This document shows positions 4,675-49,000 of a DNA stretch of 64,000 bases, piece after piece. The position numbers were made by a program, and so were the translations under genes. The notes beneath the pieces were generated by a model. It made no database searches. It saw only the letters and a program-made list of their open reading frames with translations, and had not been told where the DNA came from. Origin of the DNA: Verrucomicrobiota bacterium (GTDB lineage Bacteria > Verrucomicrobiota > Verrucomicrobiia > Limisphaerales > UBA11358); contig JBEKKN010000001.1 of NCBI GenBank assembly GCA_050010675.1, positions 7,465 to 71,464 of the forward strand, read 5' to 3'. Numbering within the stretch: the stretch's first letter is position 1; each line of letters begins with the position of its first letter.

Positions 4675-4720
4675 ATGGGGTTAACACCCCATTTCATCCG
4701 TCGGTCGCGCGACGTATGGT
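4675..4720 (+). promoter_or_regulatory. candidate promoter, site a: ATGGGGTTAACACCCCAT-N22-TATGGT
   Basis: One of 8 orientation-locked copies of the dyad/ACCCCAT element, with a fixed 22-nt spacer to a -10-like hexamer. ATG 4732 lies 11 nt downstream. The site is a perfect 7+7 dyad. Confidence 0.55.
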
Positions 4721-4731
4721 CGAGGACAATT

Positions 4732-6189
4732 ATGACGACATCGCTTGCCATGCCACCGCCGACTCCAAAAAAAACATCCCTCAAACCCACGAAAACACTG
4801 AAGACCAAATCGTACCAGAGCGTAAACCCTTACAACGGCAAGACCTTCAAGACGTTTGAGGAACTGACCGACCCGCAACTCGAAACCGCCATCCAGACCG
4901 CCGCGACCTGTTTCGCTACCTGGCGGAACAAAACGTTCGCCGAACGCGCGGCCATTGTTGCCAAAGCCGCCGCGCTCATGCGGGCGCACGCGGATGATTT
5001 CGCCAAACCCGTGACGCTCGAAATGGGCAAGCTTATCGGCGAGTCACAGGGTGAAGTCGCTTTGAGCGCGGACATCATTGATTACTACGCCAGGAACGCG
5101 GAACGATTTCTCGCCACGCAAAAGCTCCAACCAGCTTCGGGCGAAGCGGAAATTGTCAGCACTCCGTTCGGTGTGCTCTTTGGCGTGCAACCGTGGAATT
5201 TTCCCTATTACCAGCTGGCGCGTTTTGCCGCGCCCAATCTTATGGCGGGCAACGTCGTGATGGTGAAGCATGCGGGATGCGTGCCGCAATGCGCCATCGC
5301 CTTTGAAAAACTGTGGCGGGATGCGGGTGCGCCGGCCGGGGCCTACACCAATCTGCTGATTTCGTATGAACAGGTGAAGCGCGTGATCGATGATCCGCGC
5401 ATCAAGGGCGTGGCTTTGACTGGCAGCGTCGAAGCCGGAAAAAGGGTCGCCGCGAGAGCCGGACAAAATCTCAAGAAGTCCACCATGGAATTGGGCGGCA
5501 GCGACGCCTTCATCGTGCTCGAGGATGCTGATCTCGACAAAACGGTCAAATGGGCGGTCTGGGCCAAAATGAATAATACCGGCCAGTGCTGTGTCGCGGG
5601 AAAGCGATTCATCGTCGTCGAAAAGCTGGCCGACAAATTTCTGGAGATGTTTCAGGCCGCGCTGGCGGATCTAAAGCCGGGCGATCCGATGGACGAGGCG
5701 ACGTCACTCGGTCCGTTGTCCACCGAAGCGGCCCTGGTGCAGCTGCTGGGTCAAATCAAGGGTGCCGTCGCCAAGGGAGCCAGGTTGTTGATGGGTGGCA
5801 ACCGGATTGATCGGCCTGGTTCATTCATGGAGCCGACGATTCTCACTGATATCAAACCTGCCAATCCCGCGTTCCGGGAGGAATTTTTCGGACCGGTGGC
5901 ACTGTTCTTCCGCGTGAAAAACGAAGATGAAGCCATCGCGCTCGCCAACGATTCGGATTTTGGACTGGGCGGCGCGGTTTTCACCAGGGATGTCGCACGC
6001 GGCAAACGCGTGGCGAATCGCATTGATACCGGCATGGTATTCATCAATCACCCGACCTGGACGACGGCGGATCTGCCGTTCGGTGGCATCAAGAACTCCG
6101 GATATGGACGCGAACTTTCCAGCCTGGGCATTCAGGAATTCGTAAACAAAAAACTGGTGCGCGTGGCTTTGATTGACGACGCCGCCTGA
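4732..6189 (+). CDS. NAD(P)-dependent aldehyde dehydrogenase (succinate-semialdehyde dehydrogenase-like)
   Basis: ALDH family signatures MELGGSDAFIV and NNTGQCCVAGKRF (catalytic Cys). Start set to ATG 4732 (MTTSLAM), downstream of site a. Confidence 0.9.
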   Translation: MTTSLAMPPPTPKKTSLKPTKTLKTKSYQSVNPYNGKTFKTFEELTDPQLETAIQTAATCFATWRNKTFAERAAIVAKAAALMRAHADDFAKPVTLEMGKLIGESQGEVALSADIIDYYARNAERFLATQKLQPASGEAEIVSTPFGVLFGVQPWNFPYYQLARFAAPNLMAGNVVMVKHAGCVPQCAIAFEKLWRDAGAPAGAYTNLLISYEQVKRVIDDPRIKGVALTGSVEAGKRVAARAGQNLKKSTMELGGSDAFIVLEDADLDKTVKWAVWAKMNNTGQCCVAGKRFIVVEKLADKFLEMFQAALADLKPGDPMDEATSLGPLSTEAALVQLLGQIKGAVAKGARLLMGGNRIDRPGSFMEPTILTDIKPANPAFREEFFGPVALFFRVKNEDEAIALANDSDFGLGGAVFTRDVARGKRVANRIDTGMVFINHPTWTTADLPFGGIKNSGYGRELSSLGIQEFVNKKLVRVALIDDAA

Positions 6190-7233
6190 ATGAGTCCCAT
6201 GAAACAGAAAATGAAGGTGGCCGTCGTGGTGCAGTTTGGAAAGCCTTTGGAATTGCAGGAATGGGATATCCCGACTCCGGGACCGGGCCAGATCCTGGTC
6301 AAGACCGAGGCGTGTGGGGTTTGTCACACGGATGTCCATGCTTGGCGCGGCGACTGGCCATTGAAACCGACGCTTCCATTCATTCCCGGTCATGAGGGCA
6401 TTGGACCGGTCGTCGCCGTTGGCGCGGGTGTGACCATCGTGAAAATGGGCGACCGCGTCGGAGTGCCGTGGCTCTACTCGGCGTGCGGTCATTGCGAGTA
6501 TTGTTTGTCCGCTTGGGAGACGGTGTGCGCTGATGCGCAGTTCGGCGGCTACACCCGGAATGGCGGCTTTGCTGAATACATTCTGGCCGACCCAAATTAC
6601 GTTGCCCACATACCGGCCGGGCTAGAATCGACGGAAGCGGCGCCGATCATCTGCGCCGGTCTCACCACGTATAAAGGCATCAAGGAAACCGGAGCGAAAC
6701 CCGGTGAATGGATTGCCATTTCGGGCATAGGCGGCCTCGGGCATCTGGCGATCCAATACGCCAAGGCCATGGGTCTCCACGTTTGTGCCATTGACGTGGA
6801 TGACAGCAAACTCTCCCACGCCAAGTGGCTGGGGGCTGAACTCCTGGTCAATGCCAGGGCGGGCGACCCGGTCGCGGCCGTGAGGAAAGGAACCGGTGGG
6901 GGCGCGCATGGTGTTTTGATCACGGCCCCATCGCTGGGGGCTTTTAAACAGGGCGTGGGCATGACGCGCAAGCGCGGGACATGCGTGCTGAACGGACTGC
7001 CTCCCGGTGAATTTCCCACCCCGCTTTTTGATGTGGTGGCGAACTGCATTACCATCCGCGGTTCATTCGTCGGCACGCGCGCGGATATGGCCGAAGCGCT
7101 CGCCTTCGCGGCCGAGGGCAAGGTCACGGCCGACAACGAACTGCAACCGTTGTCGGCGATCAACCAGGTCTTGGAACGGCTGGAACAGGGCAGGGTGGCA
7201 TCACGCGTGGTCATTAACTTTGCCAAGAGTTGA
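6190..7233 (+). CDS. zinc-dependent alcohol dehydrogenase (AdhP-like)
   Basis: Signatures GVCHTDVHAWRGDW, GHEGIG and the structural-zinc Cys cluster CGHCEYCLSAWETVC. The ATG directly abuts the upstream stop. Confidence 0.9.
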   Translation: MSPMKQKMKVAVVVQFGKPLELQEWDIPTPGPGQILVKTEACGVCHTDVHAWRGDWPLKPTLPFIPGHEGIGPVVAVGAGVTIVKMGDRVGVPWLYSACGHCEYCLSAWETVCADAQFGGYTRNGGFAEYILADPNYVAHIPAGLESTEAAPIICAGLTTYKGIKETGAKPGEWIAISGIGGLGHLAIQYAKAMGLHVCAIDVDDSKLSHAKWLGAELLVNARAGDPVAAVRKGTGGGAHGVLITAPSLGAFKQGVGMTRKRGTCVLNGLPPGEFPTPLFDVVANCITIRGSFVGTRADMAEALAFAAEGKVTADNELQPLSAINQVLERLEQGRVASRVVINFAKS

Positions 7234-7280
7234 ACCGACAAATGATATTTCGTACATGACCTTGAAACTCGCGACGGCGC

Positions 7281-7997
7281 ATGAAACCGAAACCGCTGAT
7301 TAGCATCCAACAGCTGGAAAGGCACCGGAGTGGGCGGGCAGGGTGGTTACGCGCTGCCGTGCTCGGGTCGGACGATGCCATTGTTTCGACCGCGAGCCTG
7401 ATGATTGGGGTCGCGGCGTCCTCCGCTCCCAAGGCTGCCATTTTGGTCGCCGGCGTGGCGGGACTGGTTGCCGGAGCGATGTCCATGGCGGTGGGCGAAT
7501 ATGTTTCGGTCAGCTCGCAACGCGACGCGGAGCAGGCGGACATCGGACTTGAAAGCCGGGAGCTGGCGACGGAACCGCAAGCCGAATTGCAGGAGCTGGC
7601 GATGATTTATGTCAAACGCGGCCTGGAGCAGCAGCTCGCGATGAAAGTTGCAGAGCAACTTAGTGCGCATGACCGGCTCGGCGCCCACATGCGCGATGAG
7701 CTGGGAATTGATCAGGCATCGCTCGCGCGTCCGCTGCAAGCGGCGTGGATATCCGCCGCCAGCTTTGCAGGCTTTGCCGTGGTCCCGATCCTGGGCCTGC
7801 TGATTGCGCCCGCGGCTTTGCGCATTCCACTGATCGCAACGTTCTCGCTGGCGAGTCTCGCGGCGCTGGGTGCGTTTGGCGGTCACCTCGGCGGCGCGCC
7901 GCCCGGTCGTGCCGCGTTACGAGTCACCCTCGGTGGCACCCTGGCCATGGCCGTAACCGCCATCATCGGTCGAATCCTCGGCGTTTCCGTGGGCTGA
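7281..7997 (+). CDS. VIT1/CCC1 family iron/manganese transporter
   Basis: 238 aa. WLRAAVLGSDDAIVSTASLMIGVA, a central soluble helical region, and a C-terminal TM bundle are typical of the VIT family. Confidence 0.8.
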   Translation: MKPKPLISIQQLERHRSGRAGWLRAAVLGSDDAIVSTASLMIGVAASSAPKAAILVAGVAGLVAGAMSMAVGEYVSVSSQRDAEQADIGLESRELATEPQAELQELAMIYVKRGLEQQLAMKVAEQLSAHDRLGAHMRDELGIDQASLARPLQAAWISAASFAGFAVVPILGLLIAPAALRIPLIATFSLASLAALGAFGGHLGGAPPGRAALRVTLGGTLAMAVTAIIGRILGVSVG

Positions 7998-8073
7998 CCG
8001 ATGATGGACTACAAAATGACATCACTTGTGGTCCGCCAATTGGACCAGCCAAGCTCGCAAGAGAATAAAATTT

Positions 8074-8619
8074 ATGAAAACCGAATTTAAAAGGCCGCCG
8101 TCAACCAAACCGGAGCCTGATGTCATCGACGGGACCGCCGCTGCGGAATCGGACGCGCTCCTCAAGGATCTTGCCGAACAAAAGGATTTGCATTTGCGCC
8201 TGGCCGCTGACTTTGAGAATTTCAAGAAGCGCAGCCGGCAGGAAAGCGAGGCCCGGGCGGCCGCACAGAAGGAATCGTTCATCGTTGAGCTGTTGCCAGT
8301 CATTGACAATCTCGAACGGGCGTTGGCCGCCGGGGCGTCGCGAGACCCCGCGCAGTTTCATCAGGGGGTGGAGATGACTTTGAAACAATTGCAGCAATTG
8401 ATCCGTCGGCACGGCGTCGAAAGTGAGGAGATCGTCGGCAAACTGTTCGACCCGCACCGGCATGAGGCCCTTTCACAAGGCCACGACCCGGCCCAACCGG
8501 ACCAAGCCGTCCTCGAAGTGGTTCAGCGTGGTTACCATAAAGGCGCGAAGGTCGTTCGCCCGGCCAAAGTGGTGGTGAATGACCTGACCGCCGCCAAACC
8601 GCACCCTCATGGCCGTTGA
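8074..8619 (+). CDS. grpE: nucleotide exchange factor GrpE
   Basis: LRLAADFENFKKRSRQE and VVQRGYHKGAKVVRPAKVVV are GrpE signatures. Start set to ATG 8074. Confidence 0.9.
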   Translation: MKTEFKRPPSTKPEPDVIDGTAAAESDALLKDLAEQKDLHLRLAADFENFKKRSRQESEARAAAQKESFIVELLPVIDNLERALAAGASRDPAQFHQGVEMTLKQLQQLIRRHGVESEEIVGKLFDPHRHEALSQGHDPAQPDQAVLEVVQRGYHKGAKVVRPAKVVVNDLTAAKPHPHGR

Positions 8620-9607
8620 ATTCAAAGATTATTACCAGGTACTCGGCGTTACGCCCAAGGCGACGGACGACGAAATCAAGAAGGCTTTCCGCACCCTCGC
8701 GCGCAAGTATCATCCCGATGTCGCCAAAGACAAGAAGTCAGCGGAGGCAAAATTCAAAGAAATCAATGAGGCCAATGAGGTCTTGAGCAATCCGGAAAGC
8801 CGCCGGAAGTATGACCAGTTGGGCGCGGATTGGAAGACCGGCGGCCAGTCACGTCCACCGCCGGGTTACCCTGGAGGCCGGTCCGCCGGCCGGGACCATC
8901 ACGACCAGGAAGACGAGTTTCAATTTGAGGGCACCGGTTTCAGTGATTTTTTTGAACAGTTCTTTGGCGGACGCGCCGGCCGATCGCGGGGTGGTTCACC
9001 GTTTGAATCACAAGAATTTTCCAACGGCCATCAGCAACCACGGGCGGCATTGCGAGGACAGGACATTCAAGGCGACATTCTCATCACGCTTGATGAAGTG
9101 CTCAAGGGGGCGATGCGTGCCATTTCGGTGCGGCGCACCAATGCCCGCACCGGTCAGGAAGAAGTGGAAACCTATCAGGTCCGCATCCCGAAAGGGGTTC
9201 AGGCGGGTCAGTCGATCCGGGTTTCAGGCAAAGGTGGCGAGGGGGTGAACGGCGGCAGTGCCGGCGACATTTATTTGCGCGTGCGCTTTGCCCAGCATCC
9301 GGATTGGCAGGTGCGCGGTGCTGATCTGATGGGACATTTGGAGCTGGCCCCGTGGGAAGCGGTGTTGGGAGCGACCGTTCCCATGCGAACCTTGGAAGGC
9401 AGCGTTCTGGTCAAAGTCCCCGCCGGCTTTCAACAGGGACAAAAGCTGCGCGTCCGGGGCAAGGGATTGCCCGCTGGCGGCGTCAAGCGGGGCGATCTGT
9501 ATGTCGAGGCATCCATCCAAGTCCCCTCCCACATAGGCAAGGAGGAAGCTCGTTTGTGGAAGGAGCTGGCGTCCGGATCCGTCTTCGATCCGAGAAAGAC
9601 CACTTGA
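8609..9607 (+). CDS. DnaJ-class co-chaperone lacking the zinc finger (CbpA-like)
   Basis: J domain with HPD (YYQVLGV...ARKYHPDV), a G/F-rich linker and two C-terminal beta domains. There are no CxxCxGxG repeats. It overlaps the grpE end by 11 nt. Confidence 0.85.
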   Translation: MAVEFKDYYQVLGVTPKATDDEIKKAFRTLARKYHPDVAKDKKSAEAKFKEINEANEVLSNPESRRKYDQLGADWKTGGQSRPPPGYPGGRSAGRDHHDQEDEFQFEGTGFSDFFEQFFGGRAGRSRGGSPFESQEFSNGHQQPRAALRGQDIQGDILITLDEVLKGAMRAISVRRTNARTGQEEVETYQVRIPKGVQAGQSIRVSGKGGEGVNGGSAGDIYLRVRFAQHPDWQVRGADLMGHLELAPWEAVLGATVPMRTLEGSVLVKVPAGFQQGQKLRVRGKGLPAGGVKRGDLYVEASIQVPSHIGKEEARLWKELASGSVFDPRKTT

Positions 9608-9622
9608 TTCAAAAGCAGGGTT

Positions 9623-10924
9623 TCAACCGGGGGTCGGAGGATTGCGCCGCACTGTCCACCAGGTGACCAGCCCGGCACCGGCGCAAATTACTGCGCCCAC
9701 CGCAATGGTCCATGGCACGCCCACGGCATGAGCCAGGAATCCAGACTCAATGCCACCCAAAGGCATCATGCCGCCGAACACCAGTGCCCAGATGCCCATC
9801 ACCCGCCCGCGCATGGCGTTGGACACGCTGCCCTGGATGAGCGTGTTGGTGGTCGAGAAATAGAGTATCATCCCCCAACCGCCAACGGCCAGGCACAGGA
9901 GCACCAGCGGATACCAACGCACGATGGCCAACAGCGCCAGCATGGCCGAGAACAACCACAGCCCGCCGAGAATCATCAGCCGCGGCCGCACGCGGCTGCC
10001 GTAGGTTGCCACCGTCAGGGCCCCCAAAAGGGCCCCGAAACCATTGGCGCTGAGCAGGACGCCATAGCCACTTTCGTTCACATGAAGTATGTCGGTTGCA
10101 TAGGCTGGCAGCAGCACCGCATACGACCAGCCAAAGACGCCCACCACGCCAAAGAGCAGCAGCAAAATGCGCACGCGACGATGGCCGACCACATATTTGA
10201 AGCCTTCCAGAATATGCCGCCCCGTTGAATGCGGTTTGGCTTGGGGCACAAACCTGGGCAGACGCATCATCCACAGTCCAATAATGACCGCGATGAAACT
10301 GACGCCGTTCAGGATGAAGCACCAGGTGATGCCGACCGACGCCATAAGGAAACCGGCCACAGCAGGGCCTACGACCCGTGCGCCATTCACGATGGAACTG
10401 TTCAGCGATATGGCGTTCATCAGGTCTTCGTGACTGGTCATCTCAACCATGAACGCTTGCCGTGCCGGCATGTCGAAAGCCATCGCCACACCGCCCACCG
10501 CCGCCAGGACCAGAATATGCCACGTTTGAATGTGGCCACTCCCCACCAGCGCGGCAAATACGAAGGCCGTCAGCATCATCCCAATCTGGGTATAGAAAAT
10601 AACGGTTCGTTTGGGATGTCGGTCGGCGACAGAGCCACCCCACAGGGAAAACACCAGCATGGGCAAAGTTCCGACGGCCGCCACCGTGCCCAGCAACACC
10701 TTCGAGCCGGTCAACTGATAAACCAGCCAGCCTTGAGCGGTGGTCTGCATCCAGGTTCCGATAAGCGATACGAGCTGACCGATGAAGAACAGCCGGAAAT
10801 TTCGATGTTTAAGGGCGGCAAAGGTGTCACGCCACGCCACGTTCCCTGTTGGCCCGGGCCGCACGTTGAATTCTGGCGGAGCCATGGCGGCGGGTGTGGG
10901 TGTGGTAGTTTCTTCAGATGGCAT
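9623..10924 (-). CDS. MFS transporter (EntS/MFS_3-like)
   Basis: 433 aa with about 12 TM segments and a typical MFS layout. It is the only minus-strand gene inside the 4.7-49.5 kb block. Confidence 0.85.
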   Translation of the reverse strand: MPSEETTTPTPAAMAPPEFNVRPGPTGNVAWRDTFAALKHRNFRLFFIGQLVSLIGTWMQTTAQGWLVYQLTGSKVLLGTVAAVGTLPMLVFSLWGGSVADRHPKRTVIFYTQIGMMLTAFVFAALVGSGHIQTWHILVLAAVGGVAMAFDMPARQAFMVEMTSHEDLMNAISLNSSIVNGARVVGPAVAGFLMASVGITWCFILNGVSFIAVIIGLWMMRLPRFVPQAKPHSTGRHILEGFKYVVGHRRVRILLLLFGVVGVFGWSYAVLLPAYATDILHVNESGYGVLLSANGFGALLGALTVATYGSRVRPRLMILGGLWLFSAMLALLAIVRWYPLVLLCLAVGGWGMILYFSTTNTLIQGSVSNAMRGRVMGIWALVFGGMMPLGGIESGFLAHAVGVPWTIAVGAVICAGAGLVTWWTVRRNPPTPG

Positions 10925-11156
10925 CGACGGGGAGATATTAACCGGTTACTTCGTTCCAATCGAGTCTCAGGATGAAAATCCAGACGCCCAGCGACGCATT
11001 TGTAGCTGGATGCGTGTGGCCAGGAAAAGTGGCAATATGCTGGGCATGAAAATGTATTCATTGACCGGGTCCGGACGGCGTATCCGGCATTACTTTGGCA
11101 TATCGCTGACCCGCTTATGCAAACCCATCAGGGAGATGGCTTGAACAAAGTTCACC

Positions 11157-11201
11157 TGGGGGTAACACCCCATGTCACTCGCCTTCGCCGCTGCCTATGA
11201 T
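11157..11201 (+). promoter_or_regulatory. candidate promoter, site b: TGGGGGTAACACCCCAT-N22-TATGAT
   Basis: Same element, same orientation and the same 22-nt spacer. ATG-TGA (11209..11214) lies 7 nt after the hexamer. The SDR gene starts at 11329. Confidence 0.55.
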
Positions 11202-11328
11202 TGTGGCTATGTGAAAATGAGAGATGCGTTTCTCCGCATTCCGAGAGTGACTTATGCGGATTGGCAGCCGAAGGCCAAAACGCAAGAGCAGCTCCGGGAG
11301 GTGCTCCTTGACCATTTAAAAAGCGATT

Positions 11329-12195
11329 ATGACCACAAACAATAAAACATCCGCCAAAATTGGGAAACCCGTTTGGTTTATCACTGGCTGTTCGACCGGC
11401 TTCGGGCGTGAACTGGCCACCCAGACACTGGCACAGGGTTTTCGCACGGTGGTGACGGCCCGCAAGCCGGCGGCGGTGGAAGCGTTGGCAGCCAAGGGCG
11501 AGGCCTTGGTGCTCAAGCTCGACGTCACGGATCAACGTCAGATTGACGCGGCCATCAAAACCGCCGAAGAAAAGTTCGGTGGCATTGATGTGCTCGTGAA
11601 CAACGCGGGCATCGGCTATTTCGCGGCGATCGAAGAGGGCGAAGAAAAAGAGGTGCGCCGCATGTTCGAGATCAATGTCTTCGGCATGAGCCGGATGATT
11701 CAAGCGGCGCTGCCGGGGATGCGCCGGCGGCGCAAGGGATTTATCATCAATATATCTTCACTCGCCGGACTGCGTTCCGCGCCGGCGCTCGGATTTTACA
11801 ACGCGACCAAGTTTGCGGTCGAGGGTTTGTCCGGAGCGCTGTCACAAGAAGTTGAACCGCTTGGGATTCATGTAATGGTCGTTGAACCCAGCGGCTTTCG
11901 CACCGATTGGGCCGGACGTTCGGCGAATGAGAGCAAAAAGCAAATTGCCGACTACGCGAAAACGGCGGGAGCGTGGCGCCGTGAACTGCGCGCCGACTCG
12001 GGCAAGCAACCGGGTGATCCGGTTCGCGCCGCGCAAGCCATCATCCGCGCGGTGGAGTCGCCAAAACCGCCCCGCCATCTTTTGTTGGGCAACGATTCCT
12101 ACGAAGGGGCCATGGCCAAGCTCGAAGAGTTGCGCAAAGATTTTTCGGCGGTGGAAACGATTGCCCGCGGAGCCGATTTTCCGAAGGGAAAGTGA
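11329..12195 (+). CDS. SDR family oxidoreductase
   Basis: Rossmann motif ITGCSTGFG, plus NNAG and the catalytic YNATK. Confidence 0.9.
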   Translation: MTTNNKTSAKIGKPVWFITGCSTGFGRELATQTLAQGFRTVVTARKPAAVEALAAKGEALVLKLDVTDQRQIDAAIKTAEEKFGGIDVLVNNAGIGYFAAIEEGEEKEVRRMFEINVFGMSRMIQAALPGMRRRRKGFIINISSLAGLRSAPALGFYNATKFAVEGLSGALSQEVEPLGIHVMVVEPSGFRTDWAGRSANESKKQIADYAKTAGAWRRELRADSGKQPGDPVRAAQAIIRAVESPKPPRHLLLGNDSYEGAMAKLEELRKDFSAVETIARGADFPKGK

Positions 12196-12231
12196 AAAAA
12201 TCAACCAGCTAATAAACGAAATCCAACCAAA

Positions 12232-12840: not shown

Positions 12841-12910
12841 GTGTTGGTAGTGGCCAACCACTGATTAATCCGATCGGCACTGATTCCAGGTTAATCAACG
12901 AGGAACAGCA

Positions 12911-14374: not shown

Positions 14375-14446
14375 GGTCATGAGCCGCGGACGGATTCTCG
14401 CTCGCGGTGCGCGAAACCTCAGACCTGGTCGAAACCGAAGAATGTT

Positions 14447-15430: not shown

Positions 15431-15460
15431 GTGCGACCGGCATTCGTTTTTTGGCTTACG

Positions 15461-15505
15461 GTCGGGTTTCACCCCATAGCGCCCGCAAGATTCCCAGATG
15501 ATGCT
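15461..15505 (+). promoter_or_regulatory. candidate promoter, site c: GTCGGGTTTCACCCCAT-N22-GATGCT
   Basis: Same element, orientation and spacer. ATG 15513 lies 7 nt after the hexamer and opens a 39-codon ORF. csbD starts at 15697. Confidence 0.55.
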
Positions 15506-15696
15506 TCTGATCATGGATAATAAAAGCTGGCTTGTCGAAGTGGAGGCTGCGGCCCGCATCTGGGCGGGGGCGATCGTCGCGCCCGACTTGATCGTGGGGC
15601 ATACCGTGTGGATGAGCGTGGCCCGCAAATAAAGCAAAGAACACTTTCCCGTCAGGTTGACGGTTAACAAACACAAAACCAAAACGAACGGATTAT

Positions 15697-15903
15697 ATGA
15701 CCACACTCGAAATCAAAGGCGACTGGAACATCACCAAGGGAAAATTGAAACAGAAATGGGCGAAGCTCACGGATAATGATCTCCGTTACACTGAAGGCCA
15801 GCAGGAAGAACTGGTCGGCCGGATTCAAAAGCTCACCGGCGAGACGCGTGAAGTGGTTGAAAACACGATCAAGGAATACTCCTCTGCCTGCGGTTGCAAG
15901 TAA
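15697..15903 (+). CDS. CsbD family stress protein
   Basis: 68 aa. IKGDWNITKGKLKQKWAKLTDNDL...GRIQKLTG is the classic CsbD-like pattern. Confidence 0.85.
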   Translation: MTTLEIKGDWNITKGKLKQKWAKLTDNDLRYTEGQQEELVGRIQKLTGETREVVENTIKEYSSACGCK

Positions 15904-15948
15904 GCGGACATTTTCAGGCTGCTAACACATGAATCCCAAGGCCCTAAC

Positions 15949-16158
15949 ATGAAAGACCCAGTCTATAAACTCATTGAACTGACCGGCACCTCAACCACGT
16001 CCATGGAAGACGCGGTGGAAAAGGCCATTAAACGGGCGCACAAAACCATAAACAACCTGCGCTGGTTTCAGGTGATCGAAACCCGTGGCAACATCGAAAA
16101 GGGAAGAGTGAATCATTGGCAGGTGACCATCAAGGTCGGTTTCGCCGTGAATGAATGA
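15949..16158 (+). CDS. dodecin family flavin-binding protein
   Basis: 69 aa. [23 protein letters not shown]...[10 protein letters not shown]...WQVTIKVGF matches the dodecin (DUF1458) pattern. Confidence 0.8.
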
Positions 16159-18105: not shown

Positions 18106-18234
18106 CGTTGCCCGGACCAGATGGCTGCTCGCGCGGTGCCCATTCGCCGCAGTTGTTCAATTCCATCGGCTTGATTCTGCCGGTTGTAAGTGAAATCACA
18201 CCGCCGGTGCTTCACAAAAAGCATCTGATTGCAG

Positions 18235-18279
18235 GTCGGGTTATACCCCATAGCAGGCATTTGGTTGTCCAGCGATGCT
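18235..18279 (+). promoter_or_regulatory. candidate promoter, site d: GTCGGGTTATACCCCAT-N22-GATGCT
   Basis: Same element, orientation and spacer. The gene's ATG 18286 lies only 6 nt after the hexamer, which is leaderless geometry. Confidence 0.6.
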
Positions 18280-21344: not shown

Positions 21345-21706
21345 AGGATGGTGGGTGAACACCCGCCGGTGCCCGCCAAGGCCTGTGCCACATGTCTGGT
21401 CCGGCCTCTCCCCGGCAATGAATGAATTTTAGCCACCAAGCCCAGGGTAACCGTAACCCGGAATATTTTTCATAATTACGGTCATCAAGGTGGCGCGAAC
21501 CGTGAGGGTTTCCGTCTCCGCATCCAATAAAAACGGATTGACCGTGACTGAACATTTCTCGGTTAAGAGTCGTTGCGATGAAAAAACCAACATGCGTTGG
21601 GATGGATTTTGTTTGCGTTGATGGAGTGTGCCGGCCGGTTCCCGGGTTCGCGAGAGGTTGCTTTTGCTCATGTTATAACCAGTAAGACGAACGTCCGGCG
21701 AACGCT

Positions 21707-21752
21707 ATGGGGTGTTCACCCCATTGTTTACGGTGGCCAAAAGCGACACTTT
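21707..21752 (+). promoter_or_regulatory. candidate promoter, site e: ATGGGGTGTTCACCCCAT-N22-CACTTT
   Basis: Perfect 7+7 dyad with the same orientation and spacer. The gene's ATG 21759 lies 6 nt after the hexamer. The hexamer is a weak -10; GACACT lies 2 nt upstream. Confidence 0.5.
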
Positions 21753-30537: not shown

Positions 30538-30588
30538 AACCCTCTGCTGGATTCATTTTCGGCGGCCGCTGTTCTTCGATTTTCCGCG

Positions 30589-30633
30589 GTAGGGTTTTAC
30601 CCCATGGCGAAGCCGCCCCCGTCGGCACAAATT
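30589..30633 (+). promoter_or_regulatory. candidate promoter, site f: GTAGGGTTTTACCCCAT-N22-CAAATT
   Basis: Same element, orientation and spacer. The hexamer is weaker. A 103-nt leader with a GAAGGAG RBS precedes ATG 30737. Confidence 0.45.
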
Positions 30634-30736
30634 GAGTAGGCACTGGCAACCGCAACGATCGCGGTGCAACTGATTTCTTAAGCAGCCGCCTGCCGACAAA
30701 GAACAAAAGCGAAACGCAAAAAACGAAGGAGCTATT

Positions 30737-35170: not shown

Positions 35171-35216
35171 ATGGGGTGAATACCCCATAGTGCCGGCCGA
35201 GGGTTCGATTTATAGT
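35171..35216 (+). promoter_or_regulatory. candidate promoter, site g: ATGGGGTGAATACCCCAT-N22-TATAGT
   Basis: Perfect 7+7 dyad with the same orientation and spacer, and the best -10 of the set. ATG 35225 lies 8 nt after the hexamer and opens only 9 codons. The DUF3300 gene starts at 35262. Confidence 0.6.
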
Positions 35217-35261
35217 GACGCGTGATGGGAAACATTGGCCGGTTCAATTCCTGATATCGCG

Positions 35262-39200: not shown

Positions 39201-39231
39201 CGGCAGCAAATACCATGAACCATCTCCGAAT

Positions 39232-40374: not shown

Positions 40375-40376
40375 CC

Positions 40377-41870: not shown

Positions 41871-41883
41871 TCCAAAACCAATT

Positions 41884-42978
41884 ATGAATACGAACCTGAT
41901 CCCTATCGCAAAGAAACTGGTCGCCGACAACAAAGGTTTGCTGGCGATGGATGAAAGCAATCCCACCTGCAACCGACGATTCGCGAAGCTCAACATTCCG
42001 CAGACGCTGGAAGCCCGGCGTGCCTATCGTGAACTCATCTTAACCACGCCCGGTCTCGGCGAAAGCATCAGCGGCGTGATTCTCTACGACGAGACCATTC
42101 GCCAGTCGAAAAAAGATGGCACCACCTTTCTTAAAGTCCTTGGTGACGCGGGCATCATCCCCGGCATCAAGGTGGATACCGGGGCCAAGGACCTGGCCGC
42201 GCATCCCGGGGAAAAAATCACCGAAGGTCTGGATGGCCTGCGCGATCGGCTTAAGGAATACTTTCAAATGGGCGCGCGGTTTGCCAAGTGGCGCGCGGTG
42301 ATTGCCATCGGCAATGGCATTCCCAGTCAAAGTTGCATCGAGGCCAACGCGCACGCGTTGGCGCGTTACGCCGCGTTGTGCCAGGAAGCCGGACTGGTCC
42401 CCGTCGTCGAGCCGGAAGTGCTCATGGACGGAGACCATACCCTGGAGCGGTGCGGCGAGGTGACGGAGCAGGTCTTGCGAACCGTTTTCAACCAGCTGAA
42501 TTCCCAGCGCGTGGGGCTGGAGGGCATGATCCTCAAACCCAACATGGTGCTGCCGGGATTCACCTGCCCCCCGCACCAGGAAGTCAAAGAAGTGGGCGTC
42601 GGCGAACAGCAATATCAAGTGAGGCTGACCGACCGTCAGCCGGACGAGGGCCAAGATATCGACGAGGTCGCCAACATCACGGTGAAGAGTCTGTGGCGAA
42701 CCGTTCCCGCGGCGGTTCCGGGGATTGCCTTTTTGTCCGGCGGACAATCCGCCGAACTGGCCTCGGCCCGTTTGAATACCATGAATCTTCGATTCAAGTC
42801 GCAACTGCCATGGGCACTGTCATTTTCCTTTGCCCGTGCCATCCAGCAGCCGGCTTTGGAAATCTGGCAGGGCAAAGAGGCCAACGTGCTTGCGGCTCAG
42901 CAAGCTTTGCTTCATCGTGCCCGATGCAACCGTGCCGCGCGCCGGGGTGAATACACTGTTGCGATGGAAAGGACATGA
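41884..42978 (+). CDS. fba: class I fructose-bisphosphate aldolase
   Basis: NKGLLAMDESNPTCNRRF, IPGIKVDTG, the Schiff-base region ILKPNMV, and FLSGGQS. Confidence 0.9.
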   Translation: MNTNLIPIAKKLVADNKGLLAMDESNPTCNRRFAKLNIPQTLEARRAYRELILTTPGLGESISGVILYDETIRQSKKDGTTFLKVLGDAGIIPGIKVDTGAKDLAAHPGEKITEGLDGLRDRLKEYFQMGARFAKWRAVIAIGNGIPSQSCIEANAHALARYAALCQEAGLVPVVEPEVLMDGDHTLERCGEVTEQVLRTVFNQLNSQRVGLEGMILKPNMVLPGFTCPPHQEVKEVGVGEQQYQVRLTDRQPDEGQDIDEVANITVKSLWRTVPAAVPGIAFLSGGQSAELASARLNTMNLRFKSQLPWALSFSFARAIQQPALEIWQGKEANVLAAQQALLHRARCNRAARRGEYTVAMERT

Positions 42979-43997
42979 GCATGACAACAAAGAGACAGCT
43001 CGTGGATGAATCGCCTTTGTATCCACTGCGATTCGAACCGATCTATCAATATCGGCTCTGGGGTGGCCGACGTTTGGCCAATTTCCTCTCCGCTCCGCTG
43101 CCCGGTGATGGTCCCATCGGCGAAGCCTGGCTGTTGAGCGACCGCGAGGACCATCCGAGCCGTGTCGCCGATGGACCACTTAAGGGACGAAGCATCGGAC
43201 AATTGCTTCATCAGTGGCCCGAACAGATGCTGGGAAAACTGGCCGGGCAGTTCCGTCGGTTCCCGCTGCTGCTGAAATTTCTCGACGTGCGAGAAACGCT
43301 CTCGGTCCAGGTGCATCCATCGGATCAGCAGACCCAATATATCCCCGCGGGCGAGACCGGGAAGACCGAAGCCTGGGTGGTGCTGGAGGCGGGGACAAAA
43401 AGCCGCATCTACGCGGGCCTCAAGCCTGCCACCACAACCGACACCCTACGGCAGACGCTCGCGAACGGAACGGTGGCTGACCACCTCGCAGGCTTCACTC
43501 CGAAGCCCGGCGACGGAATTTTCATACCGGCTGGAACCGTTCATTCGTTGGGCGACGTGGTGGTTTTTGAAGTGCAGGAAAACAGCGACGTGACATTCCG
43601 GCTTTTCGACTGGAACCACGTTGACGCCAGGACCGGCCAGCCCCGGCCTCTGCAAGTTGATCAGGCGATGGCCTGCATTAATTTTGCGCAAGGTGCAATT
43701 GGTCCGGTGGTGCCCATGTTGGATGAAGTAAAGCCGGTGTCGCGCGAGCGGCTCTTTGATTGTGAACAGTTCGGTTTGTGGCGGTTCGGCGCAGAATCGC
43801 CATTTGGAGTTGGTGCCGAAAGAACCCCGCGGGTGCTGGTGTGTCTCACCGGTGACGGTCAGGTGGAACACGATGGCGCCAATTACGCCATCGGAAAGGG
43901 GGATGTGCTGCTCTTGCCGGCCATGGTTGGAGCATGTTTGTGCCGGCCGCGCGGTGCCATCAGCTTGTTGGAGATTTCATTGCCGGAAGGAAAATAA
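42975..43997 (+). CDS. manA: type I phosphomannose isomerase
   Basis: WGGRRL, LLKFLDVRETLSVQVHPSD and ETGKTEAWVVLEA. The start overlaps the fba stop. Confidence 0.85.
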   Translation: MSMTTKRQLVDESPLYPLRFEPIYQYRLWGGRRLANFLSAPLPGDGPIGEAWLLSDREDHPSRVADGPLKGRSIGQLLHQWPEQMLGKLAGQFRRFPLLLKFLDVRETLSVQVHPSDQQTQYIPAGETGKTEAWVVLEAGTKSRIYAGLKPATTTDTLRQTLANGTVADHLAGFTPKPGDGIFIPAGTVHSLGDVVVFEVQENSDVTFRLFDWNHVDARTGQPRPLQVDQAMACINFAQGAIGPVVPMLDEVKPVSRERLFDCEQFGLWRFGAESPFGVGAERTPRVLVCLTGDGQVEHDGANYAIGKGDVLLLPAMVGACLCRPRGAISLLEISLPEGK

Positions 43998-44001
43998 CCA
44001 C

Positions 44002-44784
44002 ATGAAAAGACTCATCGTTTTCGATCTGGATGGCACGCTGGCCGAAAGCAAAGCTTCGCTCGATGCCGAGATGGCCAGACTGCTCACCGCTCTGCTGGGA
44101 ATTGTGAAGGTGGCGGTGATTTCCGGCGGCGATTGGCCACAATTTGAGAAACAAGTGCTCTCCAATCTGCCCCACGATGAACACCTGAAGAACCTGTCCC
44201 TGCTCCCCACCTGTGGAACAAAGTTCTACCAATACGCCGGAGATTGGAAAAAAATCTATTCAGAAGATTTCACTACGGATCAAAAAGGGAAAATCATCAA
44301 CTCTCTAAAAAAAGCGCTCGAAGCAGCGGGCTTCAAGGTCGAAAAGGTCTGGGGAGAAACCATTGAGGATCGGGGAAGCCAGATTACGTTTTCGGCTTTG
44401 GGTCAGCAGGCGCCCATCGCAGAAAAGAAAAAATGGGACCCCGATTTCAGCAAGCGCAGGAAGATCAAGGCACTCCTTGATAAACTGATCCCTGAGTTTT
44501 CCGTGCGCCTGGGAGGCACGACCTCCGTTGACGTCACCAAGCCGGGCATTGATAAAGCCTACGGGATTCGGAAACTCCGTGACATCCTTGGCATTGCCAT
44601 TGATGAGATGATTTTTATCGGCGATGCGTTGTTTCCCGGCGGAAACGACTATCCGGCCAAAGAAGCAGGAGTTGTGTCCATCCGGGTCCGGGATCCCAAT
44701 GAATCGAAACGAGTGATTGAAGCCATTGTCGCTTGTCTGGGTGGCGTTCAACCCACAAAACCTCGTGCGGAGAAGACCGGATGA
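44002..44784 (+). CDS. HAD-IIB hydrolase, phosphomannomutase-like
   Basis: IVFDLDGTLAESKASLD, VAVISGGDW and FIGDALFPGGNDYPA resemble the eukaryotic-type PMM / HAD-IIB fold. Start set to ATG 44002. Confidence 0.7.
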   Translation: MKRLIVFDLDGTLAESKASLDAEMARLLTALLGIVKVAVISGGDWPQFEKQVLSNLPHDEHLKNLSLLPTCGTKFYQYAGDWKKIYSEDFTTDQKGKIINSLKKALEAAGFKVEKVWGETIEDRGSQITFSALGQQAPIAEKKKWDPDFSKRRKIKALLDKLIPEFSVRLGGTTSVDVTKPGIDKAYGIRKLRDILGIAIDEMIFIGDALFPGGNDYPAKEAGVVSIRVRDPNESKRVIEAIVACLGGVQPTKPRAEKTG

Positions 44785-45905
44785 GCGGCTTTCAATTACA
44801 GCGCCTGGGAATGTTGATGGAGCCGGAGCCGGGCAACCCGCAGGAGATTGAAGGCGTCCTGAATTCCGCGGCTGCTCGCGGTCAGGACGGCAGGCTTTAC
44901 CTGTTTCCGAGACTAGTTGCCAAGGGCAACTATTCGCGCATCGGCATCGCCCGCGTAAAATTCAACGAAGCCGGCGACCCGTCCGGAGTCGAGCGACTCG
45001 GCATCGCGCTTGAGCCGGAAGCGGATTACGAGCGGCGTTCTGACGGCCGTGGCGGATGCGAGGATGCCCGGGTTACCTTTGTCGAGCCGCTTCAGCATTA
45101 CGTCATGACTTATACGGCGCTTTCGCCGGGAGGACCCCGGATCGCCCTGGCCATGTCGGAGGATTTGTTCCACTGGGAGCGGATCGGGCTGGCAATCTTT
45201 GAACCCTTTCAAGGCATTGATTTCGTCCACGTGGACAACAAGGATGCCAGCATCTTCCCCGTCGCCATTCCCAATCACGCCGGAAAAATGCAGCTGGCCA
45301 TGCTCCATCGTCCGCTTTTTCCCGGCACCCGCCCCGAGGAAACCGCCTGCCTGGACGAGTCCCGGATGGTGGATCGCGAGCATGAAAGCATCTGGATTTC
45401 CTACTGTCCAATGCCGCCTGAGGGCCTGGCGCCGCATCGGCCCGGCTTGTTCAACTCGCATCATCGGCTGGCCAGTCCGGTCTCAGCCTGGGAAAAGCTG
45501 AAAATCGGCGGCGGCACTCCACCCATTCTAACCAAGCATGGCTGGCTGATTCTTTACCACGGCGTGAGCAAAATGGCGGAACCAGACAGCAACGGACACC
45601 CGCTCCGCTACTCGGCCGGGGTGATGGTTCTGTCAAAAGAGCATCCGCAGGAAATCCGCTATCGTTCCACGGACCCGGTGTTGACGCCGGAGTTGCCACA
45701 GGAACGCCACGGGACCATCGCCAACGTCGTGTTCCCCACCGGCATCGACCGGCGCGACGATCTCGGCACGCCCGACCGCTTTGACATTTATTACGGGATG
45801 GCCGACAACCGGATTGGTGTGGCGCGTCTCGACCTGCCGGAACATCTGCCACCAGGAGCAGCCGCCGACGGGCCGTCGCCAAAATCAAGAGAGACTATGT
45901 GGTGA
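44781..45905 (+). CDS. GH130 family glycosidase/beta-mannoside phosphorylase-like protein
   Basis: LNSAAARGQDGRLYLFPR, CEDARVTF, NKDASIFP, YYGMADNRIGVARL and a five-bladed beta-propeller pattern. The ATG overlaps the previous stop. Confidence 0.75.
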   Translation: MSGFQLQRLGMLMEPEPGNPQEIEGVLNSAAARGQDGRLYLFPRLVAKGNYSRIGIARVKFNEAGDPSGVERLGIALEPEADYERRSDGRGGCEDARVTFVEPLQHYVMTYTALSPGGPRIALAMSEDLFHWERIGLAIFEPFQGIDFVHVDNKDASIFPVAIPNHAGKMQLAMLHRPLFPGTRPEETACLDESRMVDREHESIWISYCPMPPEGLAPHRPGLFNSHHRLASPVSAWEKLKIGGGTPPILTKHGWLILYHGVSKMAEPDSNGHPLRYSAGVMVLSKEHPQEIRYRSTDPVLTPELPQERHGTIANVVFPTGIDRRDDLGTPDRFDIYYGMADNRIGVARLDLPEHLPPGAAADGPSPKSRETMW

Positions 45906-45993
45906 AGACCTCATAAGCGGTTTCGGCATGTCCTCTTTATATCTGTCGCACGCGGTTACGTAAATGTTGTTTCCATTTTTGCAGCCATCCATA

Positions 45994-46038
45994 GTCGGGT
46001 TACACCCCATAGGACATGGCCAGCCTTGGGCGTAGGCT
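45994..46038 (+). promoter_or_regulatory. candidate promoter, site h: GTCGGGTTACACCCCAT-N22-TAGGCT
   Basis: Same element, orientation and spacer. The in-frame ATG 46047 lies 8 nt after the hexamer. Confidence 0.55.
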
Positions 46039-46046
46039 TGATCCGA

Positions 46047-49000
46047 ATGAATGCGCCACCTGCCGCCGCCCAGCCAAAGCCTCCCGAACCAAAACCGGGG
46101 GCATCCGCGGATTTGAAGCCCGATCCAAAGGACGATTTGAAAACGCTGCCGATGGCGGAGGTGGAGAAAAAATTAGAATCGTCGCCGGATGGTCTTACCG
46201 ATGCTGAAGCCAAGAAACGGCTCACGCAATATGGGCCGAATGAACTGGTCGAGAAGAAGACAAATCTTCTCCTGAAATTCCTCTTGTATTTTTGGGGGCC
46301 AATTCCGTGGATGATCGAGATCGCGGTGATTCTGTCGGGCGTGGTCCGGCACTGGCCGGATTTTTTCATCATCCTCCTGTTGCTGGTGACCAACGCGGTG
46401 GTTGCCTTCTGGGAGGAACGCCAGGCCGGCAATGAAATCGCCGCCTTGAAAGCCAAACTGGCCATCAAGGCCCGCGTTATCCGCGACGGCAAATGGATCA
46501 ATCCGGCGGCACGCGAACTGGTGCCGGGCGATGTCGTCCGGCTGCGGCTGGGCGACGTGGTGCCGGCCGACGCGCGTTTGCTGGCAGGCGACGAGGTGTC
46601 GGTGGATCAATCCGCGCTGACCGGCGAATCGTTGCCGGTGACACGCAAGTCCGGGGACGCCGTGTTTTCCGGTTCGATCATCCGGCGCGGCGAAATCGGC
46701 GCGCTGGTTTATGCGACGGGCGGGAATACCTATTTTGGCAAAACGGCACAATTGGTGCAGGAGGCATTAACCGTCAGTCATTTTCAAAAAGCGGTTTTGA
46801 AGATTGGTAATTATCTCATCATCCTCGCGGTGGCGCTGGTGGCGGTCATCATTGGTTTCGCCATCTATCGCGGCGACGCGATTCTCACCACGTTGCAGTT
46901 CGCCCTGGTGCTGACCGTGGCGGCGATTCCGGTCGCCATGCCCACGGTTTTGTCGGTGACGATGGCAGTCGGCGCACGGCTGCTCGCCAAGAAACAGGCA
47001 ATTGTCAGCCGGTTGGTGGCGATTGAGGAACTGGCGGGCGTGGACGTGTTGTGTGCCGACAAGACCGGCACGTTGACTCAAAACAAACTGACGCTGGGCG
47101 ACCCGTTCAGCGTCAACAATATCCCCGCCGGGCAAATCATCCTGACGGCGGCGCTGGCGTCGCGCGAGGAAAACAACGATACGATTGATCTGGCGGTTTT
47201 GGGCGGCCTGAAAAATAAAGACGCACTGAAAGAATATCAGGTCGTCCATTTCCTGCCATTTGATCCGGTGCATAAACGCACCGAGGCGACGGTCAAGGGC
47301 AAGGACGGAAAGACGTTCAAGGTGACAAAGGGCGCACCGCAAGTGGTTCTAGCTTTGTCGGCCAATGCTGGTGAAGTCAAAGCGGCAGCTGAAAAAGCGG
47401 TTAATGATTTCGCCGCCCGCGGTTTTCGTTCGTTAGGCGTGGCGCGGACCGAGGGCGACGGACCATGGCAATTTCTCGGCGTGTTGCCCATGTTCGATCC
47501 GCCGCGCGAGGATGCCAAGGCCACGATTGCGACTGCCCTGACCATGGGCGTGAAGATCAAAATGGTGACGGGCGATCAACTGGCGATTGCCAGGGAGACG
47601 GCGAAGACCTTGGACATGGGCACGAATATTCTTGATGCCAAAATGCTGGGCGACTCAAAAAAACACGAGTCAGCGGAGGTGATTGAGTCCATCGAGCAAG
47701 CGGACGGTTTTGCCGAGGTGTTTCCCGAACATAAATTTCACATCGTGGATGTCCTGCAAAAGCGCAACCACATCGTCGGCATGACGGGCGACGGCGTGAA
47801 TGACGCGCCGGCACTGAAGAAAGCGGACTGTGGTATCGCCGTTTCCAGCGCGACGGACGCGGCACGCGCGGCGGCCGCGATCGTGCTGCTCACGCCCGGC
47901 CTGTCGGTGATCATTGATGCCATCAAGGAAAGCCGGCGGATTTTCCAGCGAATGAACAGTTACGCGATTTATCGCATCGCCGAGACGCTGCGCGTGTTGT
48001 TGTTCATGACCCTGGCGATTCTGGTTTTTAATTTTTATCCCCTGACGGCGGTGATGATTGTGATGCTGGCGTTGCTTAACGATGGCGCGATTCTGTCCAT
48101 CGCCTATGACAATGTTCACTACAAAAACAAGCCTGAGTCGTGGAATATGCGCATGGTGCTGGGCGTCTCCACGGCGCTGGGAATCATCGGGGTCGTGTCC
48201 GCCTTTGGACTATTTTATCTCGGCGAGCGGGTCTTTCATCTCGACCGCGCACATATTCAGACGCTGATGTATTTGAAACTGTCCGTGGCGGGACATCTGA
48301 CCATTTTCCTCACCCGCACCCGTGGACCGTTCTGGTCCATCCGTCCGGCGAGGATTTTGATGATCGCGGTGTTTGGCACCCAGACCGTGGCGACCTTGAT
48401 CGCGGTTTACGGGCTTTTTATGACGCCGTTGGGCTGGGGTTGGGCGGGGTTTGTGTGGGGTTATGCCTTGCTGTGGTTCCTTGTGAACGATCGCATCAAA
48501 CTGCTCGCGTATCGGATTTTTGATCCGGTCAAAAAAACCGGGACGATTCCTGAAATCAAAGTTGCAACTCGGCCCGATGCCAAAAGTGACGCGAAAACTT
48601 CGGCCCAACCCGAAGATAAAACCGAACCGCAATCCGGCGCTAAAGAAGCGCAAAAGCCCGAGGTTAAGACGGACGCCAAGGCTGGGGCCGACCCAGATGC
48701 CAAAGTTGAACCCAAGTCGGAGGCGAAGGCCGAGCCGCAGCCTGATACCAAGCCCGACGCCAAAGCTGAGGTTGAAGCCAACCCCGTAGTCGAGCCGAAT
48801 CCGGAACCCAAAGCCAGGACAACTGCCGATTTGACGGCGCAGATCGCCACACGGGCGTATGAACTTTACGAGCAGCAGGACCATCGGGACGGTCAATCAG
48901 CACAGAACTGGGACAAGGCCGAACAGGAAATTCGCGCAACTCAAGCCAAAGCTGAAGCCAAACCAGCGGTCAAAGGTGATTTACAGCCGGGCACTAAAGC

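Follow-up and report, generated by a model that had tools for sequence, protein, structure and literature searches.

The stretch of DNA analysed here (the window) is 64,000 nucleotides (nt) long and comes from an uncultured bacterium of the order Limisphaerales in the Verrucomicrobiota (contig JBEKKN010000001.1, positions 7,465-71,464 of the forward strand, assembly GCA_050010675.1; G+C content 57.6%). It carries eight promoters on the '+' strand, a to h, with a common motif, GGGT-N3/4-ACCCCAT, given more fully as GGkkWACACCCCAT (the element). Downstream of the element stands a hexamer, closely followed at seven of the eight sites by an ATG. The geometry of these promoters probably yields transcripts that begin with the start codon itself, that is, leaderless messenger RNAs.

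The genes behind the eight promoters form the following groups: aldehyde dehydrogenase, ADH, VIT1, GrpE and DnaJ; SDR, YceI and NAD(P)HX repair; CsbD, dodecin and RNase II; DUF2934 proteins; an ABC-2 exporter with RpiB, glycogen phosphorylase, acetate kinase and PGI; PRC-barrel with phosphoketolase; DUF3300 and DUF2950 with a MacB-type pump; and a P-type H+-ATPase with PPK2. This gene set is typical of general stress. Lineage-wide, that is, in Limisphaerales-related metagenome contigs and loci of metagenome-assembled genomes (MAGs), which bear L-numbers below, the first genes 3′ of the element encode BON (16), CsbD, PRC-barrel, YflT, OsmC, dodecin and DUF883 proteins, and also RsbU_N/HisKA_3 kinases, response regulators and DnaK. 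The promoters belong to a lineage-specific general-stress regulon. The element was also found at loci of an RNase II-family gene, which in the window sits between units c and d, in MAGs of Verrucomicrobiae, Verrucomicrobia subdivision 3 and Limisphaerales (78-89% amino-acid identity); it was not found in more than 70 loci of other phyla that bear the same gene, and its occurrence is confined to Limisphaerales-like contigs. Strains L001-L010 are near-identical to the window and too close to inform on conservation.

The sites are listed below in window positions; the gap is the number of nt between the end of the hexamer and the ATG (aa, amino acids; ORF, open reading frame).

Site a, 4675-4692, + strand: element, a perfect palindrome (ATGGGGTTAACACCCCAT) whose '−' reading faces a YflT gene; TATGGT 4715-4720, gap 11, ATG 4732 of an aldehyde dehydrogenase of 485 aa
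Site b, 11156-11173, + strand: element; TATGAT 11196-11201, gap 7, ATG-TGA start-stop 11209-11214
42-codon ORF of unit b, 11217-11345, + strand: begins 2 nt after the start-stop and overlaps the SDR start (11329) by 17 nt
Site c, 15460-15477, + strand: element; GATGCT 15500-15505, gap 7, ATG 15513
Small ORF of unit c, 15513-15632, + strand: 39 aa, hydrophobic; csbD (15697-15903) lies downstream
Site d, 18234-18251, + strand: element; GATGCT 18274-18279, gap 6, ATG 18286 of a DUF2934 protein of 90 aa; unit to 18558
Site e, 21707-21724, + strand: palindromic element; CACTTT 21747-21752, gap 6, ATG 21759 of an ABC ATPase of 266 aa, to 22559
Site e in reverse, 21429-21684, − strand: TACTGG 21684-21679, without T at position 6; gap 7, ATG 21671 of an 80-codon ORF
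Site f, 30588-30605, + strand: element; CAAATT 30628-30633, 103-nt leader with GAAGGAG, ATG 30737 of a PRC-barrel protein
Site g, 35171-35188, + strand: palindromic element; TATAGT 35211-35216, gap 8, ATG 35225
Mini-ORF of unit g, 35225-35254, + strand: 9 codons, MGNIGRFNS; its stop lies 7 nt before the DUF3300 start (35262)
Site h, 45993-46010, + strand: element; TAGGCT 46033-46038, gap 8, ATG 46047; unit to 49448
Product of unit h, 46047-49448, + strand: P-type H+-ATPase with a DUF2934 tail, 1133 aa

An earlier note on this DNA had drawn attention to these sites. Its quoted sequences and coordinates are exact throughout, and site f is indeed the only one without a nearby ATG, having instead its 103-nt leader and GAAGGAG; the note had missed the '−' strand reading of e.

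A −10 hexamer at a fixed distance from the element

At all eight window sites the spacing from the T of CCCCAT to the hexamer is exactly 22 nt, and the hexamer has A at position 2 and T at position 6. A metagenome scan for the motif with A2 and T6 gave 120 loci which, together with their flanks and the MAG loci, amount to 214 distinct sites. In 85 lineage sites that were unselected on the hexamer, counting from CCCCAT, position 23 was T in 38, position 24 was A in 54 and position 28 was T in 52. A TAnnnT-type hexamer (A2, T6) was present in 69 of these 85 sites, at a spacing of 22 nt in 46, 21 in 9 and 23 in 14. The hexamer is a genuine −10 element of the TAnnnT type, and its distance to the regulon motif is fixed.

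Alignment of 50 sites anchored solely on ACCCCAT-N22-TAnnnT revealed upstream a single asymmetric motif, GG-k-k-W-A-C-ACCCCAT-r-G-c. Only the promoter-proximal part of the element is strongly conserved, and most copies are asymmetric; the palindromic form is a special case serving both strands, as at a, e and g, which are also read on the '−' strand. A division into two motif classes (with a 3- or 4-nt centre) vanished on right-alignment, leaving one asymmetric motif with GG at −14/−13. A generic sigma-70 scan of the window found promoter b as its sole match, with no enrichment; it thus provides no independent support, and these promoters lack a canonical −35 hexamer. A literature search with the motif strings found no relevant paper, and the element appears to be undescribed.

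An ATG at the predicted start of transcription

The earlier note had judged, from a rough expectation, that an ATG near seven of eight hexamers was non-random. This was borne out: a slot of six positions contains an ATG with a measured probability of 0.097 in the window, so that P(≥7/8) is ~6e-7. For gaps 6-8 the corresponding window probability is 0.049, and an ATG was observed there at 6/8 sites. In 198 lineage sites, ATGs at gaps 6, 7 and 8 numbered 15, 26 and 8 against a background of 3.9 per position, or 49 in sum versus 11.7 expected (P=4e-16). The enrichment was also seen in the hexamer-unselected subset (18 versus 4.2 expected, P=5e-7) and after single-linkage grouping of the sites at 60% identity, where 42 of 162 clusters had an ATG at gap 6-8 versus 8.3 expected (P ~8e-17). 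A secondary peak in the ATG histogram arises from a hairpin of csbD-type units that holds an ATG at gap 11. This hairpin, tgACGGCAAatgaaTTGCCGTca, followed by an A-rich leader, recurs within the first 40 nt past the hexamer, at the predicted 5′ end of such units (L136, L179, L015:5687+, L118, L094, L154 and L160); in L160 it shows a compensatory change from C-G to U-A.

The start codon at the near sites of the window was ATG in 7/7 cases, and an ATG stood at gaps 6-7 in 41 of the 198 lineage sites; in the 126 scan-selected sites the counts of ATG, GTG and TTG at these gaps were 21, 12 and 5. Non-AUG codons work poorly at the 5′ end of a message. A gene counts as leaderless when transcription starts on the first base of its start codon or at most about 5 nt before it. 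The published sequence signature of leaderless genes is a TANNNT whose first T lies ~12 nt from the start codon (PMC3160421). The spacing in the window agrees with it, the first base of the hexamer lying 12 nt (d and e), 13 nt (b and c), 14 nt (g and h) or 17 nt (a) from the ATG, and the lineage peak falls at gap 6-7.

Promoters of the same regulon without a nearby ATG indicate where transcription would start. In 131 such leadered sites the sixth nt past the hexamer was C in 46% and the seventh a purine in 66%; in the 50 anchored sites nt 34 was C in 34/50 and nt 35 was A in 22/50. A C followed by a purine at these positions matches the pyrimidine(−1)/purine(+1) pattern that commonly marks transcription starts at this distance from a −10 element. 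Since this signature occupies the sixth and seventh nt in the leadered promoters, the A of the ATG falls on the predicted transcription start. From the −10 spacing and the C/purine signature we infer that the transcript of the promoters with an ATG at gap 6-8 very probably starts at the AUG start codon.

Start codons of units a, c, d, e and h

The long-ORF ATGs had been said to give sensible N termini, and this holds for d, e and h, where orthologues or the lack of an alternative start support the call; a is ambiguous, with ATGs at 4732 and 4750. At d, the orthologues in L011 and L012 retain both MKPN.. and the gap of 6, though the six intervening nt differ, and a paralogue in L012 and another in L165 likewise stand at gap 6. 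In the ABC ATPase of unit e the ABC_tran domain extends from residue 22, and use of the next in-frame start would remove its first beta strand. For h, 120 orthologues of the same architecture were among the matches listed by a homologue search, and the 38 orthologue sequences read all begin M-x5-7-QPKxPEPKP.., matching MNAPPAAAQPKPPEPKP. In L211-L214 this gene is operon-internal and preceded by GAAAGGA, and the element is missing there; the window has the element inserted and has lost the GAAAGGA Shine-Dalgarno sequence. On this evidence, units d, e and h truly start at their promoter-proximal ATGs.

Members of this H+-ATPase family (46047-49448 in the window; P0002-P0120) have a K/P/D/A-rich low-complexity N-terminal stretch whose length varies widely (~20-90 aa) and, at the other end, a long tail of repeats that includes DUF2934 modules (whole proteins 992-1271 aa, 73-89% identity). 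On the '−' strand of e, the C-terminal ~50 residues of the 80-codon ORF recur in L011 and L012 (~40% identity over 51-55 residues, no indels). These counterparts stand downstream of a response-regulator gene, and the conservation is weak.

At c, the small ORF that had been reported as an unannotated reading frame of 39 codons is present and has the marks of a conserved small protein. Six-frame searches of lineage loci, on which its conservation rests, found it with 39 codons and always at gap 7 in the window (W), L011, L012, L100 and L201. Counted by codon position, its substitutions number 65/54/97, an excess at third positions, and the remaining two frames have stops. A protein-database query of 44 aa matched only its own cluster, a 'hypothetical protein' of the same species. 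On this comparative evidence, the AUG at c opens a conserved 39-aa hydrophobic, membrane-type peptide ahead of csbD. A small hairpin, CCGTCA-ggt-TGACGG (15649-15663), lies between the two and is kept in L011 and partly in L100.

Site a differs. In L100 and L130 the orthologous aldehyde dehydrogenases begin with MSYQSVNP and stand at gap 7, whereas the window copy carries a 26-aa A/C-rich N-terminal extension (MTTSLAMPPPTPKKTSLKPTKTLKTK, 4732-4809) that is absent from them. The ancestral ATG of MSYQSVNP has become AAA-TCG, and the extension looks like what was once a 5′ leader and has thereby come to be translated. The earlier note had also missed a GAGGA 5 nt before the ATG. As it lies between hexamer and ATG, it would be cut off if transcription started at the usual distance; we regard site a as near-leaderless at best. 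The comparison of orthologous upstream regions, which the note had suggested, thus shows the ATG spacing kept at c and d, and at a a gap of 7 in the orthologues versus 11 in the window. Taken by unit, the sequences support leaderless heads well at c, d, e and h, where this reading is the best one, and less well at a.

Short ORFs at b, g and elsewhere

Lineage-wide, 58 ATGs stood at gap 6-8; 34 of them head ORFs of 50 aa or more, and the other 24 head short ones. For 21 of the short leaderless-type ORFs a long ORF follows downstream: 5/21 end in an ATGA overlap with it and 11/21 end within −13 to +7 nt of the next ORF. The upstream ORFs of the window likewise stop near the next start, at +7 nt for the mini-ORF of g and at +2 nt to the next ATG for the start-stop of b. 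This arrangement makes it plausible that the mini-ORFs at b and g act as translational coupling devices. For b, the start-stop was retained in strain L010 despite substitutions beside it; searches of the other loci found no homologue of the 42-codon ORF. In strain L004 a 1-nt deletion joins the 42-codon ORF to the SDR reading frame, and the SDR gene is accordingly called there as 340 aa (L004:5476-6498).

Leadered families and the rest of the genome

Whether a promoter is leaderless or leadered is a property of the gene family. PRC-barrel and YflT were leadered in all copies seen, as was the single dnaK promoter seen (L011); the DUF2934, 39-aa ORF and aldehyde dehydrogenase families are leaderless-type. 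At f, leader and Shine-Dalgarno sequence are conserved among the PRC-barrel orthologues. The PRC-barrel leader (30634-30736; conserved in L129, L158, L190, L211 and L214) contains ..gatcgcggtgcaac.gattt.. and ends in ACGAAAGGA/GAAGGAG-ctatt-ATG; it has no Rfam match, and its conservation suggests that it may be a regulatory 5′ untranslated region (UTR).

Outside the regulon the arrangement occurred at the background rate. In ~800 kb of lineage DNA, from contig pieces that had been chosen for carrying the motif, a TAnnnT at gap 6-8 preceded 10 of 731 other long ORFs versus ~12 expected, and two or three of these ten non-regulon cases were motif variants; among ORFs with the element (CCCCAT) upstream it preceded 11 of 57. 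No leaderless signature was found in non-regulon genes, the window ATGs at 57073 and 10924 being without a proper TAnnnT.

The earlier note had further argued that these ATGs leave no room for a Shine-Dalgarno sequence. This argument carries no weight, since cores of such sequences (GGAG, GAGG or AGGA at −18 to −4) were found at only 5 of 51 window gene starts, which makes their absence uninformative. Leaders are A/C-rich, and the organism seems to initiate mostly without Shine-Dalgarno sequences. Elsewhere in the window, rpoN (sigma-54) lies at the left end (480-2000) with TAAAAT 10 nt 5′ of its ATG, unrelated to the element; Rfam and tRNA scans of the window gave no matches.

Reader of the element and proposed mechanism

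A gene for a sigma-70-family factor (340-400 aa; regions 1.2, 2, 3 and 4) has the element and hexamer upstream in 6/6 orthologues (L176:1200-2348, − strand; L215-L219:2001-3170, + strand; 66-100% identity). Two of the six promoters are leaderless-type and most copies are leadered. The pattern looks like autoregulation of an alternative sigma factor. Genes for an ECF sigma factor, an RsbU_N/HisKA_3 kinase, GerE and YtxH lie near it in some of the loci. Candidate readers of the element are this autoregulated sigma-70-family factor or an activator bound beside the −35 region; an activator would also suit an element that keeps a set place next to the −35 region and has palindromic copies acting in both directions. 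The prediction of the transcription start is the same whichever of them reads the element.

Several known promoter types were compared with the element and rejected. The EcfG-type promoter GGAAC-N16/17-CGTT had 0 matches in the window; the sigma-B-type promoter GTTTaa-N12-15-GGGTAt, sought as GTTT-N14-17-GGGTA, also had 0 window matches, and upstream GTTT occurred at an inconstant distance from the element; sigma-54 GG-N10-GC does not fit the element by inspection. A sigma-32 (RpoH) promoter would have CTTGAA as its −35, 13-17 nt before CCCCATnT, and an RNA start close behind the latter; here there is no −35 block upstream, and instead a conserved TAnnnT 22 nt downstream.

We propose that the 14-18 bp element GGkkWACACCCCAT(rGc) lies at about −48 to −35 from the transcription start, with the TAnnnT −10 sequence exactly 22 nt (rarely 21 or 23) downstream, and that RNA polymerase would start at the seventh or eighth nt past the hexamer. 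In 6/8 '+' promoters of the window, and about a quarter of those lineage-wide, the start nt would be the A of an ATG; the transcript would begin with AUG, and ribosomes would load on this 5′-terminal AUG without a leader. The 5′ AUG would start the main protein at d, e and h and the 39-aa peptide at c, while at a it would be the likely start behind a leader of only 3-5 nt. At b and g the mini-ORF stops 2 and 7 nt before the next AUG, and ribosomes would probably be passed on by termination-reinitiation to downstream cistrons that have no Shine-Dalgarno sequence.

Discussion

Promoters of a stress regulon whose geometry yields leaderless heads offer, in our view, the best explanation overall, with a probability of roughly 0.7. 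Several observations weigh against it. The position of the transcription start is read from spacing alone, and the hexamers of e (CACTTT) and of its '−' strand reading (TACTGG) are weak. The control of 731 ORFs shares the selection of its contigs for the motif. At a, the gap is 11, GAGGA lies within it and a second in-frame ATG follows at 4750. At c, the small ORF is degenerate (truncated or displaced) in L130 and L120. Promoters orthologous to b and g were not found in L012, L130 and L201, where the SDR and DUF3300 genes are operon-internal; the mini-ORFs of b and g are thus without comparative support. Finally, only ~26% of the lineage clusters are leaderless-type, so that the arrangement is not a defining property of the regulon. 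The earlier claim that transcripts of the regulon begin at or next to an AUG therefore stands as the best reading of c, d, e and h and fails as a general rule.

Some of these points also fit real promoters with an incidental origin of the ATGs at two sites, b and g, or even at a third, a. The start-stop, 9-codon and 42-codon ORFs would then be untranslated or without meaning, and the genes behind them would use short non-Shine-Dalgarno leaders like most genes of this genome. The missing promoters in relatives, the 42-codon frame of b, which is broken by the 1-nt deletion in L004 and has lost its ATG in L010, the long gap and second ATG of a, and the prevalence of initiation without Shine-Dalgarno sequences in this genome all agree with such an origin. 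It is harder to reconcile with the survival of the b start-stop in L010 through flanking substitutions, with the commonness of short ORFs at gap 6-8 across the lineage and their ATGA overlaps, or with an estimate from the window rate that at least three of b, c, f and g, the four sites without a long ORF at that place, would have an ATG at gap 6-8 by chance with a probability of ~5e-4. We consider incidental ATGs at these two or three sites quite possible, though short of probable.

That the ATGs as a whole reflect chance or biased choice, hexamers and the 6-11-nt slot having been picked after the ATGs were seen, is scarcely credible. The slot was indeed set after the fact, four of the eight window hexamers themselves include an ATG, and the window frequency (6/8 at gap 6-8) exceeds the lineage average of 26%; however, the enrichment returns in independent sites, where it peaks at gap 7, and holds in the unselected and the clustered data, and the hexamer was not chosen site by site, its position being fixed by the 22-nt rule. 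The same rule bears on a further alternative, in which the element is an alternative-sigma promoter whose −10 is CCCCAT, presumably a match to the sigma-32 −10 core, with RNA starting directly behind CCCCAT, leaders of ~35-40 nt and TAnnnT serving in the 5′ UTR, 6-8 nt ahead of the AUG, as an A/U-rich substitute for a Shine-Dalgarno sequence. The regulon does contain dnaK and grpE-dnaJ, and the hexamer occupies the place of a Shine-Dalgarno sequence in a genome poor in them. Yet the 22-nt distance is kept in ~75% of promoters, which have no nearby ATG, indicating that the hexamer is tied to the element and not to the start codon. Moreover, no CTTGAA-like −35 stands at a constant distance, information content is flat beyond −18, the GG at −14/−13 is too near CCCCAT to be a −35, and the pyrimidine-purine signature lies 6-7 nt after the hexamer. 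We therefore think this alternative improbable.

Leaderless translation is usually seen as a genome-wide habit (in Actinobacteria, Deinococcus and archaea) or as a single-gene oddity. If the leaderless reading is true, it is concentrated here in one stress regulon of abundant uncultured peat and soil bacteria, and the debated idea that stress favours leaderless messenger RNAs would become testable in a natural system. We tentatively go one step further, to a possible wiring on two levels: a dedicated element, perhaps read by the autoregulated sigma-70-family factor, and a geometry that makes at least a quarter of the transcripts leaderless. Such transcripts, and also cistrons coupled to leaderless mini-ORFs, could be translated by 70S ribosomes (undissociated or reactivated) when normal initiation is shut down, as in starvation or dormancy. 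Were this the case, leaderless initiation, hardly used elsewhere in the genome, would serve this one regulon as a device for stress. For annotation, the leaderless reading would fix starts that gene callers misplace or omit, in this window those of the ABC ATPase, the DUF2934 protein, the H+-ATPase and the 39-aa peptide, the last of which is unannotated besides 'hypothetical protein' calls in near-identical strains, and it would provide a compact promoter rule for Limisphaerales MAGs, GGkkWACACCCCAT-N22-TAnnnT-N6/7-ATG.

Comparison with known systems

The gene content resembles that of the general-stress regulons of sigma-B (Bacillus), EcfG (Alphaproteobacteria) and RpoS, which share with it CsbD, YflT, BON, OsmC, PRC-barrel and dodecin proteins, as well as short-chain dehydrogenase, DnaK/GrpE/DnaJ and a kinase with an RsbU_N domain. 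The promoters differ, being of the form GGkkWACACCCCAT-N22-TAnnnT here, and to our knowledge none of these three regulons is known for leaderless transcripts. In its architecture, the element recalls class II activator promoters (FNR/CRP, centred at −41.5): it keeps a fixed place right beside the −35 region, a canonical −35 hexamer is lacking, and it is palindromic in some promoters, palindromic copies serving divergent promoters. Unlike those sites, its centre lies near −43/−44 and it is mostly asymmetric.

Short leaderless upstream ORFs have reportedly been described in mycobacteria, together with small proteins (Shell et al. in 2015) and in a cysteine-responsive form (Canestrari et al. in 2020). 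As there, a 5′-terminal AUG here would open a short ORF before the main gene, and start/stop overlaps suggest coupling or attenuation. In contrast to them, no amino-acid-sensing codon runs are visible, and the short ORFs include one bare start-stop and one conserved 39-aa membrane-type peptide.

For the Verrucomicrobiota, neither leaderless transcripts nor mapped promoters turned up in a full-text literature search. The closest parallel in form is provided by the leaderless messenger RNAs of Actinobacteria and Deinococcus-Thermus, which likewise start with AUG, have no leader or Shine-Dalgarno sequence and encode full-length genes as well as small ORFs, with a TANNNT −10 ~6-7 nt before the start codon (PMC3160421). 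There, at least 20% of genes are leaderless, genome-wide and from housekeeping promoters, whereas here the arrangement is limited to one regulon. In Escherichia coli, a set of stress genes is likewise reported to be translated as leaderless messenger RNAs generated by MazF (PMC5001579), the leaders being removed after transcription by this endoribonuclease; here leaderlessness would be built into promoter geometry. The mechanism proposed is thus of a known kind, and the novelty lies in its being gathered in a single stress regulon of the Verrucomicrobiota, under an element that seems not to have been described before.

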